Source of the DNA: Octopus sinensis
Taxonomy: Eukaryota
Assembly (NCBI RefSeq): GCF_006345805.1
Contig: NW_021835887.1
Location: forward strand, 1-37,878
Length of the DNA: 37,878 nucleotides
Direction: 5' to 3'
In this document: piece after piece, positions 1,601-32,426 of the stretch
How positions within the stretch are numbered: position 1 is the stretch's first letter
How the letters are laid out: the number at the start of each line of letters is the position of its first letter
Position numbers and translations under genes: made by a program
The notes under the pieces: generated by a model
Seen by the model: only the letters and a program-made list of their open reading frames with translations
Told to the model about the DNA's origin: nothing
Database searches by the model: none

Positions 1601-1659
1601 CAGTCTCTGATGAAACTACTTGCCTGGCAAATAAAACACCAGCGCTGTATCTAAGACTG
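1601..1659 (+). ncRNA. Possible decayed type I hammerhead ribozyme
   Basis: CAGTCT-CTGATGA ... TA-AGACTG gives a perfect 6-bp stem I; palindrome CAGCGCTG in stem III position; but GAAA box reads TAAAAC. Confidence 0.35.
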
Positions 1660-1954
1660 CGACCAGCACTCCTGAATAGGAACTCAGTGCTGTTAATAAC
1701 AGTATCATTGAAAAATTCACTGAGGAATATTTCCTCAACTGTTGTTATGGGTATTTAACCTCAAGTCTCTTGTAGATATATGAACGAAGACATGACAGTC
1801 GTGCCAATAGCGTCTTTTTCTAAAGCAGTGTATCTAGAACTAAATCAATTTGTGCCCTTTTCATTAGAAGACAGTGAGTGTGTGACATAAAAAGGGATTG
1901 GGTTACTACCTTCAGATTGGCTCCTTTTATATTCTAGGTCAGAATACCTATAAT

Positions 1955-2500
1955 TCTGTGAGCAAAGCTAGAAAAGCTAACGAGGACCATTTTCTGAGTT
2001 TCCTGATAGAAACGTTAACAACATTGCCCTATTATTTATGGGTCACTACAGAAGGGTTATAAAGAGGAACCTACTTCCTGTGAGCCAGGATAGAAGGTAT
2101 AAAACCAAGAACTTCTTTTCTGTAGGCCAAGATATAAGGGTTACAAATGCAACCCTATTTTTTGCAGCCTAAGATAGAAGAGCTAAGAATTATAACCTAC
2201 TTTCTTTAAGCCAAGATAGAAGGGCTCACAAGGAGAATTTGAGGGCTTTCTGTGAGTCAATATAGAAGGGTTCGATCTATTTTGTTGGGGTCAGTATAGA
2301 ACACATTTTTGAGGGCCAAGATAAAATGGCTACGACCAGGAGCATATTCTATGTGATTCAAAATAAAAGAGTTACAAATGTGACCTTATTTTGTGTACGT
2401 TTAGGACAGAAGGGCTACAAGGAAATCACATATTATTGATCAATAGAAAAAGGTTAACAATATGACCGTAATTTCTGGGGACACCAGCTGGAAGGGCAAA
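1955..2500. repeat. Degenerate minisatellite, ~42-bp unit
   Basis: Units starting near 2040, 2082, 2124, 2166, 2208 share (G)AGCCAAGATAGAAGGGTTACAAA...CCTATTTTCTGT; more diverged units on both sides. Confidence 0.8.
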
Positions 2501-2673
2501 CAAACTAAACATACAATGTGTTGTGTGTTATCGCCACCAACCTAGAATGGACTTCGTATTCAATGACATGAAATATATGGCTTCATAATTCCCAGAAGCG
2601 TCATAATTCTTGTGATTACTATTCCAGACTTTGATTTGTTCAGTTTAACATAGAGATTTACATTGTTAGCAGC

Positions 2674-2830
2674 CGTGGTGGAAATGGTGGTGGTGATTGT
2701 GGTGGTGGTGAAAATGGTGGTGGTGGTGATGGTGGTGGTGGTGGTGGTGGTGGTGGTGGTGGTGGTGGTGGTGGTGGTGGCGGTAGTAGTTGAGCTGGTA
2801 GAGTGGATGAGGGTGCTGAGATGGAGGTGG
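2674..2830. repeat. (GGT)n microsatellite
   Basis: Direct reading; source of poly-Pro/His/Val ORFs. Confidence 0.95.
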
Positions 2831-3059
2831 AGATGTTATGAATGATAGTGAGGCTGAAGCTATATATGCGCACATATGGGTATATACACAGCATATGCCT
2901 ACATATACATATATATACACGGACACACACACACGTACATACATATACGATCATTTGTATATATATATACACAGACACACGTACACACATGTATGTTGAC
3001 ATAGGCTGGCGGGGGAGGGAAGGAGGTTGTGTCGACAGATGCAGCAGTTGTTGATTTGG

Positions 3060-3330
3060 CAGTGGTTGTGGTGGTGCAATTGTGAGGGATAATGTTGTGT
3101 TGGTGGTAGTGGTTCTGAGATGGCAGAGGTAGAAGTGGTGGTGGTGGTGGTGGTGGTGGCGGCGGTGGTGATGGTGTGGTGGTTGGTGGTAGAGGAGTGG
3201 TGGTGGTGGTGGTGGTGGCGGCGGTGGTGATGGTAGTGGTGGTGGTGGTAGAAGTGGTGGTGGTGGTGGTGGTGGTGGCGGCGGTGGTGATGGTAGTGGT
3301 GGTGGTGGTAGAAGTTGTGGTGGTGGTGGT
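3060..3330. repeat. (GGT)n-derived array with ~60-bp higher-order period
   Basis: GTAGAAG(TGG)nCGGCGGTGGTGATGGT recurs at about 3129, 3188, 3248 and partially 3308. Confidence 0.9.
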
Positions 3331-3537
3331 TGCTCGTAATTTCGTTCATGTCATAGCACCGCTACTTAAACGTCGGGCATTATCGAATCCGTCAGAGTGT
3401 GAGTTCCATTTCCGGTTCGGAATCATTTCCCTCGCGTCATTAACGTGATTGAGTACAGCATGAACATCACAACATCACACCTTTACTTTCAACTTTACAC
3501 TGCTGTTTGAACGGTTATTTGTTGCTCACAACACTGC

Positions 3538-3830
3538 ATATACATGAGTGTGTGTATGTGTTTGTGTGTATATGTGAATACATACACACATATATATATG
3601 TACATATATATATATATGTACATATATATATATATACACACATACACATATATATATACCCATGCATGTAGATATTTGGTTGGGTGTATGCGGACTATAT
3701 ATATATATATGGGCATATGTACAAGCGTCTGTTTGTATGCATGCGGTGTGTGTGTGTTTGTGTGTGTGTGTGTGTGTGTGTGTGTGTGTGTGTGTGTGTG
3801 TGTGTGTGTGTGTGTGCGTGTGTGTGTGTG
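3538..3830. repeat. Compound (TA)n/(CA)n/(GT)n microsatellite
   Basis: Direct reading. Confidence 0.9.
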
Positions 3831-3926
3831 CAGCAGTCTTCATTATAACAACATCGACCAATAGTCAACTTGGGGGCGCTTTTATTTCATCCGGTTCTCT
3901 GACTTAACTATTTGTGTAGGTGTTTG

Positions 3927-30374: not shown

Positions 30375-30608
30375 CCAGTTGATCCGATCAATGGAACAGC
30401 ATGCTCGTGAAATTAGCATGCAAGTGGTCCGAGCACTCTACAGAAACTTGTACCCTTAACGTAGTTCTCAGGGAGATTCAGCTTGTCACACTCTGTGTCA
30501 CACTGAATCTCCCCGAGAACTACGTTAAGGGTACACGTGTCTGTGGAGTGCTCAGCCACTTGCACGTTAATTTCACGAGCAGGCTGTTCCATTGATCGGA
30601 TCAGCTGG
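30375..30608. repeat. Long inverted repeat: ~107-bp arms, 21-nt spacer
   Basis: 30375-30481 is the reverse complement of 30503-30608 with about 10 differences. Confidence 0.95.
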
Positions 30609-30979
30609 AACACTCGCCGTCGTACATGTATCAATTACGTGTATGCCTATGCATATGTGTGTGTGTGCAGAAATACATCAGTGTATGTCTGTACATGTGA
30701 GTATACACACACACACACACACACAGAAGAGGAGGGAGTGAGGCAGAGAAAGAGAACGGACTCTCCTGTCGTAGACGAAAATGAGCGTTTCGAATTTCCT
30801 TGATGAACAACCTGCGCAGAGAATGTGCTAATAGGAATCAAATATTCACTTCCTCTATCAAATCGACTTTACTTCTGGTGTGCCACATGTCAGGTGTTCA
30901 AGTAATCGCAAAACAACGTAAGATGAAGTATCTTGCTCGAGAACAGGAATCTTGAAGTTGTATGACATGCTAACCATAT

Positions 30980-31067
30980 TATAATAATAATAATAACAAT
31001 AATAATAATAATAATAATGATAATAATATAATAATAATAATAATAATAATAATAATAATAATAATAA
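30980..31067. repeat. (AAT)n microsatellite
   Basis: Direct reading. Confidence 0.95.
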
Positions 31068-31559
31068 CTAATTCGTTTATTGGCCACAAGGGCCAACAAA
31101 GATCAATTATAACATTTAGGGACAAAATACAGGACGAAAGTTACAAAGGGTTTTGTAATAACATTGAATAATACATTAGGAATGAGAACCCAGATTTGAA
31201 ATTTCCCCAAGACACCTGATGAAGGCTGTGGAGGGTAACAAAGAAGATGAGGACAAATATCCGTCAAATGTAAATAATGTAAATAATGTAAATGATTCCT
31301 CATTTCTTAAATATAGAATTACACATGCACAGCATTGAATGTGTGACTACAAATACCCAGGATCTCAGCTGCATCAAAACTTAATAGTAAAGTACACATA
31401 AAAATAATTAAGACAATATATTCTAATTCCTTAAAATTGATGATCGAATTGCAGATTTTAATTACAATCGTTTAAGCCTGTTACATTAAACCTAGTAACG
31501 CCCTCGTGCGTACACGTCTTGCGATGTCGTATCATATATATCGTTCATGTGTGTGTGTT

Positions 31560-31812
31560 GGGGTGTGTGGCATAGTGGTTAGGGTGGTGGATTCATAATC
31601 GTAAGATTGTGGTTTCAATTCCTGGACCGATCGACGCGTTGTGTTCTTGAGCAAAACACTTCCTTTCATGTTGCTCAAGTCCGCACAGCCGGCAAAAAGG
31701 AGTTAAACCCTGAGAGGGACTGGCGTCCCGTCCAGTGGAGAATATATACACCATTGAAACCGGGAAACCTTATGAGTCGGTAGAACTGGAGACTGTAACT
31801 TTACTCTTTACC
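31560..31812 (+). mobile_element. tRNA-derived SINE family C
   Basis: GTGGCATAGTGGTTAGG A box, GGTTTCAATTCC B box, GTGTTCTTGAGCAAAACACTT, GACTGGCGTCCCGTCCAG, short TTTACTC tail. Confidence 0.8.
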
Positions 31813-31857
31813 TATATGTGTATGTGTATATAATATATCTATATATATATATATACA

Positions 31858-32146
31858 TGGAGGCAGCGGACTCGCGGTCGGAGGATCGCGGTTTCGATTC
31901 CCAAACCGGGCGTTGTGTATGTTTATTAAGCAAAAACGCCTAAAAGCTCCACGAGGCTCCGGCAGGGGATGGTGGTGACCCCTGTTGTACTCTTTCGCCC
32001 CAACTTTCTCTCACTGTCTCTTCCTGTTTCTTGAGTAACGCCGCGATGGACTGGCGTCCTGTCCAGCTGGGGGAGAACATATATGCCACAGAAACCGGGC
32101 CCATGAGCCTGTCTAGGCTTGAAAAGGGCGTATAAATAATAAATAA
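31858..32146 (+). mobile_element. tRNA-derived SINE, family C-related variant
   Basis: GGTTTCGATTCCC B box; shares GACTGGCGTCCTGTCCAG...GAAACCGGG with 31560-31812; AAATAAT tail. Confidence 0.75.
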
Positions 32147-32367
32147 TATTTCTTCCATGTATGCTTGTGTGGGGGGGGGCTGTGTGTGCGTGTGTGTGTG
32201 TGTGTGTGGTGGTGTATGTGTGTGTGTGTTGCTCAGGCATAGTAGTGCCAATAAACTAGTGTTAGAACTCAATACACACATGCTTCAGAGAAAGGAATTA
32301 GTTGAATACAGAGTGTGATAAGAGATTATATTAAAGACAAGGGGACAAGAAATTATGTAATGAATTT

Positions 32368-32426
32368 CATTAGCTTACAGCTGTTTCTGCAATTAGCTGC
32401 AATGCGCTCATAGATCAGAGCTTATG
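32368..32426 (-). ncRNA. Decayed type I hammerhead ribozyme
   Basis: Minus strand: CATAAGCT CTGA[TCTA]TGA GCGCAT TGCAG-CTAA-TTGCA GAAAC AGCT GTA AGCTAATG; 7/8-bp stem I, same stem III as 7598-7653, 4-nt insertion in the first core box. Confidence 0.6.

Follow-up and report, generated by a model that had tools for sequence, protein, structure and literature searches.

The window analysed here is the entire 37.9-kb contig NW_021835887.1 (37,878 nucleotides, forward strand) of the 2.72-Gb Octopus sinensis genome (GCF_006345805.1), which contains a gene for a large Maf transcription factor and six sequences that a first-pass annotation flagged as type I hammerhead ribozymes, three of them well-formed and three decayed. 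All six flagged strings are present where they were reported; they are designated here A (core at 11410, minus strand), B (7649, minus), C (17368, plus), D (flagged at 32368, minus), E (1601, plus) and F (31216, plus). Very probably, five of the six (all except E) are solitary, 5'-truncated ends of five abundant repeat families that carry hammerheads, of which two (A and B) can be traced to the 3' ends of Penelope-like elements (PLEs) and the other three likely either are PLEs or depend on them, the copies in the window being likely inert. Family F, an element with a tRNA-like head, is the new point among them and a plausible new variant.

The six motifs differ in quality. A strict type I descriptor passes only A and B in the window; the third motif that had been called well-formed, C, has a mutated helix III. 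Two of the motifs called decayed, D and F, are indeed broken copies of real families, but the third, E, is unsupported. The conserved core (CUGANGA...GAAA...UH) is present in the window copies of A, B and C and not in those of D, E and F, and helix III is a palindrome in A (ACGU) and B (ACAGCUGU), as it is in family C but not in the mutated window copy. The two strict motifs compare with a mean of 0.10 in 300 dinucleotide shuffles of the repeat-masked window, one of which reached two, and with looser stems the two observed compare with 0.25 (P = 0.027); thus the density check proposed by the first-pass annotation came out above chance. The bare CTGANGA heptamer occurs 21 times versus 13.0 ± 3.5 in shuffles, so a call of "decayed" made on the core alone is cheap. 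Motif E (1601..1660, plus strand) consists of CTGATGA and a hairpin without GAAA and has three genome matches including itself, its two weak relatives both lacking an intact core; it is probably a chance match, or else a very old relic. Two further CTGANGA...GAAA strings (9900-9931 and 14607-14656) are without stems by the descriptor and have no match in the hammerhead library. No Rfam hammerhead model matched at A, B or C, nor was any hammerhead present among the 150 listed of the 267 Rfam matches to the whole window, a list dominated by microRNA models that match TA repeats.

The five real motifs represent five separate dispersed families, with 305 to 3134 genome candidates each, which bears out the earlier proposal of several abundant families of Penelope-kind hammerhead retroelements; 40 candidates were scored in each of the five large family sets. 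Copies have variable 5' ends and narrower 3' ends, often in microsatellites, and the core is intact in 51 of the 66 copies examined for A, 39 of 64 for B, 18 of 35 for C and 17 of 48 for F.

Family A is represented on the minus strand (11310..11492) by a 5'-truncated 3' end, or pseudo-long terminal repeat (pseudo-LTR), of a Neptune-like PLE that retains an intact minimal type I hammerhead (motif 11388-11410), with C3 at 11410, a stem II of 4 bp, the ACGU palindrome at 11388-11385, a weak stem I of 3-4 bp, and a predicted cut after 11384. The helix III implied by the earlier coordinates needs a G that is present in just 6 of 27 other motif-bearing copies; the conserved register is the four-nucleotide ACGU palindrome followed by U17. 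The genome contains 3134 candidates, and all 40 of those scored matched at 90% or more. Upstream of A lies a 2.1-kb CA-rich region that starts at a GIY-YIG C-terminus (locus L390), and another locus (L391) joins that C-terminus to a decayed reverse transcriptase (RT) thumb (tblastn E 8e-11 to a Neptune-type open reading frame, ORF), so that the 3' region of A is collinear with endonuclease and RT via the overlap of the two loci. As in Neptune-clade PLEs, L391 has an RT thumb, an apparently Cys-containing linker, a GIY-YIG domain with downstream His residues and a C-terminus ending in ...GLN; of the CX2-5CxxC linker and CCHH motif, this one copy retains a decayed Cys cluster and His residues. 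A differs from Neptune-clade PLEs in its CA-rich 3' region of about 2.1 kb and in that the copies seen are all decayed. Family A thus appears to be the 3' end of a Neptune-like PLE, a clade label taken from such motifs. The Neptune motif names follow general usage and passages of PMC8557442. A link between A and another GIY-YIG locus (L132) was rejected, A being a solo insertion in a TA run there.

A further A-like family, very common, has the ACGU palindrome followed by A and an altered core (flanks of L019, L022, L023, L048, L050 and L358). The youngest Neptune-type family (781-aa RT/GIY-YIG frames; L154-L156, L160 and many GIY-YIG matches) has no hammerhead of its own by the descriptor in the loci read; the hammerhead 1.5 kb from the Neptune-type frame of L154 may be a separate insertion.

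Family B is represented on the minus strand (7518..7692) by a truncated pseudo-LTR of a decayed Hydra-clade PLE, again with an intact minimal type I hammerhead (motif 7602-7649; C3 at 7649, a long stem II, the palindrome ACAGCUGU at 7610-7603 and a predicted cut after 7602). Joined to the 5' end of this copy is an inverted piece of its own 3' tail (7694..7749, plus strand; query positions 1-50 match the opposite strand), a 5' inversion of PLE type, and the whole insertion is flanked by TA runs. There are 1996 candidates for B in the genome. Upstream of the ribozyme, copies share about 2.4 kb with a broken RT, an Asn/Thr-rich linker, a CxCX5C motif and an endonuclease (L204-L209, L362), the translated endonucleases of L204-L209 having CxxC and CxH around a conserved E and N; the same linker and endonuclease motifs are given as marks of the Hydra clade in PMC8557442 (section 11). 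The endonuclease matches with E values of 1e-7 to 1e-16 in six of six long copies, and the RT remnant shares 50% identity with an intact ORF of 919 aa that contains a Pfam GIY-YIG domain (Atlas neighbours, GIY-YIG clusters). In L362 the RT remnant is followed at 2.4 kb by a B hammerhead and preceded by a B copy in inverted orientation. Reading frames are broken in every B copy seen, the RT N-terminus was not reached in them, and among 15 long related frames, many of them 5'-short, RWK is present in one and DKT in seven. Neptune-type queries missed the ORF of B, which was found by reading translations, and the RT piece has 9295 candidates in the genome. B is therefore assigned as the 3' end of a decayed PLE, probably of the Hydra clade, as read from these sequence marks.

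More generally, a minimal hammerhead follows the PLE ORF or GIY-YIG domain on the same strand, at a distance of 0.5-1.8 kb, in 11 of 20 Hydra-type loci and 6 of 20 GIY-YIG loci, the former with both tandem (L350) and inverted (L351, L352, L355) layouts among them; the Pfam GIY-YIG domain has 5029 genome candidates, and 147 of the 150 scored match. Within the window itself, 73 query frames gave no tblastn match to a PLE protein (RT or GIY-YIG ORF), in agreement with the first-pass annotation. Its view that the elements are short and non-autonomous does not hold for A and B: these are 3' ends, truncated on the 5' side, of long PLEs in which remnants of RT and endonuclease lie further upstream. 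The flank search that it proposed yielded an ORF link for these two, none for C, D or F, and almost no tandem copies.

One Hydra-type family (L345, L348-L351, L355; for example G000:C17:13317400-13323900) comprises near-identical copies with open frames of 734-947 aa and an Asn-rich linker, followed after about 1.5 kb by a hammerhead with a long stem II, and looks recently active. Such near-identical elements with intact ORFs, both tandem and inverted (L345-L355), lend themselves well to studying the role of the hammerhead in PLE transposition. In the window, a short stretch (28649-28697) resembles by eye the 3' end behind the Hydra-type ORF of L359, and is possibly a PLE tail without a ribozyme.

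Family C is a short head-to-head palindromic insertion (17282..17431, plus strand; alignment of 22 loci) centred on TGATCA (17355-17360). Its plus arm has C3 at 17368, a 3-bp stem II with a GNRA loop, a long stem I and a mutated helix III that, unlike that of the family, is no longer palindromic; the inverted arm is without a core. The 305 genome candidates match on both strands. Family D is a truncated copy (32230..32446, minus strand; alignment of 20 loci, 591 candidates) of a family with a long stem II and a palindrome, ACAGCUGU, identical to that of B. Its true core (32448-32442) is about 30 nt upstream of the flagged one, which actually lies inside stem II, and C3 and stem I have been lost at the 5' truncation of the element. 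Inversion or truncation points cluster at ribozyme features, namely the TGATCA palindrome at the foot of stem I in C (L062-L085) and the base of stem II in D (L090, L094-L096, L100-L103), which suggests that new complementary DNA (cDNA) folds back at these hairpins; both samples are biased by the query, and several of the D loci are one duplicated segment.

Family F is represented on the plus strand (31156..31323; CTGATGA at 31216-31222) by the body and tail of a tRNA-like-headed element, the head being absent from this copy and the 3' half of the ribozyme core lost by internal deletion. Intact relatives exist: there are 1970 genome candidates and 761 exact matches to the 46-nt intact motif (control, 0). 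In 30 copies picked by the intact ribozyme alone (the first 30 of the 761), the layout is a head with A and B boxes, an AAT/AAC run, a body of about 50 nt, the ribozyme, and a tail that has a fixed end in complete copies; the B-box motif was found in 15 copies, the A-box motif in 8, and an inverted F copy within 650 nt in 9. Head and body are linked, since 7 of the 9 heads from arbitrary regions run into the body, as do both of the 2 found elsewhere, and 8 of 12 bodies are headed. Those 12 body matches in 733 kb extrapolate to about 45,000 places genome-wide. The head has no Rfam match, and ARAGORN at default settings made no call in ten loci; under relaxed settings 5 of 30 copies were called as cloverleaves with an ACT loop, amid noise, and the two tRNA-like calls in the loci examined are too few for comparing the head with genomic tRNAs. 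The TTTT of a terminator occurs on the sense strand in one of eight full copies and on the antisense strand in seven of eight. The 3' tail had no match in 70 PLE-ORF loci, the genome not having been searched for a partner element, and no target-site duplication was evident by eye in six copies.

F sequence is also found in RNA. Three raw RNA sequencing (RNA-seq) runs from one study of a related or identical octopod contain 6314-8660 F reads per approximately 12 million, with equal mate orientations and thus no strand bias, and 77% of these reads extend into unlike flanks; F is present in RNA mainly as a passenger of longer transcripts. Libraries of this kind, made from fragmented cDNA, cannot reveal free RNA polymerase III (Pol III) transcripts or cleavage.

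The motifs are dense throughout the genome. A background sample totalling 732.6 kb, drawn as 74 pieces of 9.9 kb each at round-number coordinates of the large contigs, contains 15 strict motifs versus 0.45 in shuffles, a density of 20 per Mb (interval 11-34, which is too narrow because two inverted pairs were counted twice) that corresponds to roughly 55,000 intact-looking motifs genome-wide (rough interval 31,000-92,000). At this background, 0.78 strict motifs would be expected in the window, where two are seen (P = 0.18); there is thus no enrichment, the Maf gene is a bystander, and the earlier tie between the motifs and this transcription-factor gene is incidental. All loci examined (1.97 Mb, non-random) contain 178 motifs in 42 clusters, of which the 18 with two or more members have differing stems and 15 different palindromes. 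When a palindrome was not required, 27 of 87 core-plus-stem-II matches in arbitrary regions were palindromic versus about 4 of 38 in shuffles. Divergence at non-CpG positions is lower in the core than in the flanks for A (0.029 vs 0.070), C (0.025 vs 0.179) and F (0.019 vs 0.059).

Insertion layouts also distinguish these families. Head-to-head pairs within 500 nt involve 16 of 74 copies of B, 20 of 47 of C, 10 of 25 of D and 46 of 87 of F, versus 12 of 216, 14 of 244 and 0 of 43 for three control SINE-like (short interspersed nuclear element) repeats; both members of a pair are counted, and the loci were chosen by search. Neighbours on the same strand within 500 nt are nearly absent (A, 0 of 65; B, 1 of 74; C, 0 of 47; D, 0 of 25; F, 3 of 87), which is taken to exclude tandem retrozymes. 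None of the window motifs has a partner of its own family there. B and D have the same palindrome and lie on the same strand, but D is without a core, so the window copies most likely do nothing.

From the observed anatomy, family membership, linkage of A and B to ORFs, inversions and decay, the following cycle may be proposed. An active PLE would carry a minimal hammerhead in each pseudo-LTR; helix III being merely a palindrome, two copies in a tandem transcript would pair with each other and cut out an RNA of unit length, as in the published model. Starting at the 3' end, the RT and GIY-YIG endonuclease would copy this RNA into microsatellites, in many cases TA runs, and, judging from the insertions, copying would usually stop early and often fold back. 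The outcome is solo or head-to-head 3' ends that retain the ribozyme and decay after insertion. F adds the tRNA-like A/B-box head and would likely be a PLE passenger transcribed by Pol III. The cluster flagged in the window is, on this evidence, the ordinary debris of known elements, real but usual for this genome, where minimal hammerheads number in the tens of thousands and fall into at least 18 families.

Several observations weigh against this interpretation. The RT link of A is the overlap of two loci and not a single copy, and A is rarely inverted within 500 nt (2 of 65). Pfam did not recognise three decayed frames of B, whose core is barely more conserved than its flanks (0.078 vs 0.096). 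No ORF was tied to C, D or F among the loci examined. The family samples are the best matches to the window copies and hence biased. Finally, the covariation that the first-pass annotation suggested looking for in the stems is not above shuffles within families: compensatory changes number 0 in A, 5 versus 2.7 in B (99/1000), 6 versus 3.8 in C (83/500) and 2 versus 1.0 in F (126/500). No excess is expected, because copies decay after insertion; the stems of different families have different sequences that do pair, but pairing is a requirement of the descriptor itself.

Three other explanations were weighed. That the motifs are monomers of tandem non-LTR retrozymes making circular RNAs accords with their type I topology, with the shortness of C and F and their lack of a known ORF, and with a report that solo monomers are often found in retrozyme families and that such families originate from PLE pseudo-LTRs (bioRxiv 10.64898/2026.07.22.740005); it is nevertheless very unlikely, as head-to-tail neighbours amount to 0-3% within 500 nt, A and B continue for over 2 kb into PLE ORFs, and the ribozymes are minimal rather than canonical. 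Chance matching to a short consensus describes the bare heptamer well enough, probably explains the motif at 1601, and would fit the failure of Rfam hammerhead models to score A, B or C. As an account of the whole set it is extremely improbable and already refuted for five of the six motifs by the excess of strict motifs over shuffles across 733 kb, by the hundreds to thousands of candidates per family, and by the fixed position behind PLE ORFs.

That the window copies are domesticated ribozymes, positioned about the Maf gene so as to cleave or terminate its transcripts, is highly improbable. A, B and D do lie on the Maf strand, A about 8 kb and B about 12 kb past the Maf stop, and the F-family sequence is present in octopod RNA, mostly within longer transcripts. 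The motifs are not enriched at this locus, however; C, D and F are damaged and none has a partner of its own family in the window. Single minimal hammerheads gave no cleavage in vitro and dimers cleaved weakly (PMC4209133), a second copy being needed to form helix III and the proposed role being the processing of tandem precursor RNAs. Neither an end pile-up nor a drop in depth was found at the predicted cut of F in the RNA-seq data, a weak test in which cut molecules could be lost. The suggestion that some copies cut host transcripts is thus unsupported, three of the five real motifs being damaged and A and B having no second copy; with lone minimal hammerheads reported not to cleave and no partner at hand, such cutting is unlikely. 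The window motifs are better read as the truncated, inert ends of PLEs and PLE-dependent elements.

The host gene itself encodes a MafA-like bZIP factor of 265 aa with an unbroken coding frame (19305..20102, minus strand; Pfam bZIP_Maf, E 2.5e-29), which falls in a 90%-identity cluster with MafA-like proteins of Octopus bimaculoides and Argonauta and is the sole host gene identified in the window. Immediately upstream of the frame is a 117-nt tandem duplication in two copies (98%; 20235-20464), either real or an assembly artefact. The rest of the window is repetitive, with 105 tandem-repeat rows, and a repeat search returned chiefly microsatellites and SINE pairs. Two abundant SINE-like families make up a large share of its non-microsatellite sequence, one at 10067-10547, 10826-11290, 13381-13708, 24852-25024 and 33786-33929, the other at 1147-1381, 15717-16184, 21321-21538, 25640-26136, 33018-33245 and 36630-36875. 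Decayed mariner/Tc1-like DNA transposons with terminal inverted repeats are found at 5862-6727, ~21967-23190 and 23814-23946, the last a miniature copy split by a SINE piece.

With regard to F, there is about an even chance that it is a Penelope-mobilised SINE. On this reading it would be a Pol III element of about 300 nt in which a tRNA-like promoter head is followed by an AAT spacer, then the minimal hammerhead and lastly a fixed tail of PLE type; it would occupy about 45,000 places, its insertion machinery leaving PLE-type 5' inversions in half of the copies. The Schistosoma element SM-alpha has a tRNA-like Pol III promoter. If the proposal is true, F is a SINE that parasitises a Penelope-like element rather than a long interspersed nuclear element (LINE), and the SINE-LINE pairing gains a SINE-PLE case; a single hammerhead-bearing 3' end, without tandem pseudo-LTRs, would then suffice for mobilisation by the PLE enzyme. 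F also reduces the question of the role of the hammerhead to a 300-nt non-coding unit with a promoter-like head, in which, if it is mobilised by a PLE, ribozyme and tail could be mutated separately. No tRNA-headed SINE with a PLE hammerhead was found in the literature searched, which comprised titles, the starts of abstracts and passages; one may be catalogued in Repbase, Dfam or subscription journals, which lay outside the search.

Hammerheads in PLEs have already been published, including one octopus Hydra family (PMC4209133, PMC8557442). The minimal hammerheads described by Cervera and de la Pena (2014, PMC4209133) have the same core, unpaired base before stem II, palindromic positions 15.2-16.2 and short stem I as those found here, and likewise occur as many families per genome, mostly as solo copies, with opposite-strand pairs 100-700 bp apart; the ACGU palindrome and U17 of A are the same as in mollusc rows of that supplement. 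The U3-A8 core variant of the same study is seen here in L158 and L159, as well as in L162, L172, L272 and L274. Compared with that set, the present estimate of ~55,000 intact-looking motifs exceeds the 2,000-9,000 reported, and several families have stem II regions of 40-70 nt; Octopus was not found in two of its three supplement files. Rfam hammerheads number 235 in the giant squid (PMC6962438), and the word "ribozyme" occurs 0 times in the main text of a 2026 repeat annotation of Octopus vulgaris (PMC13282606). Further literature was considered (PMC6155905, PMC8967140, PMC10294476, PMC11722881).

Like Hydra-clade PLEs (PMC8557442), family B has a C-terminal endonuclease, the CxCX5C and CxxC/CxH motifs, insertion into TA repeats and a hammerhead at the 3' end. 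The octopus family Hydra-1_Obim, listed with its hammerhead for Octopus bimaculoides in supplement rows of PMC8557442 (Craig et al. 2021), also has a palindromic helix III, but the ribozyme sequence of B is different; B and several intact relatives also have a long Asn/Thr-rich linker and 3' regions of up to at least 1.5 kb, whereas published Hydra elements are generally shorter than 3 kb. F resembles non-LTR retrozymes (PMC7229834; bioRxiv 10.64898/2026.07.22.740005) and Schistosoma SM-alpha in being short and non-coding, with a type I hammerhead and a proposed dependence on PLEs, but retrozymes are tandem with mostly canonical ribozymes, whereas F is dispersed, single or head-to-head, with a minimal ribozyme. 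With tRNA-derived octopod SINEs it shares a head with A and B boxes, a length of about 300 nt and tens of thousands of copies; unlike them, it has a hammerhead and a fixed, non-repetitive 3' end, and its rate of 5' inversion is about tenfold that of three other SINE-like families from the same loci.

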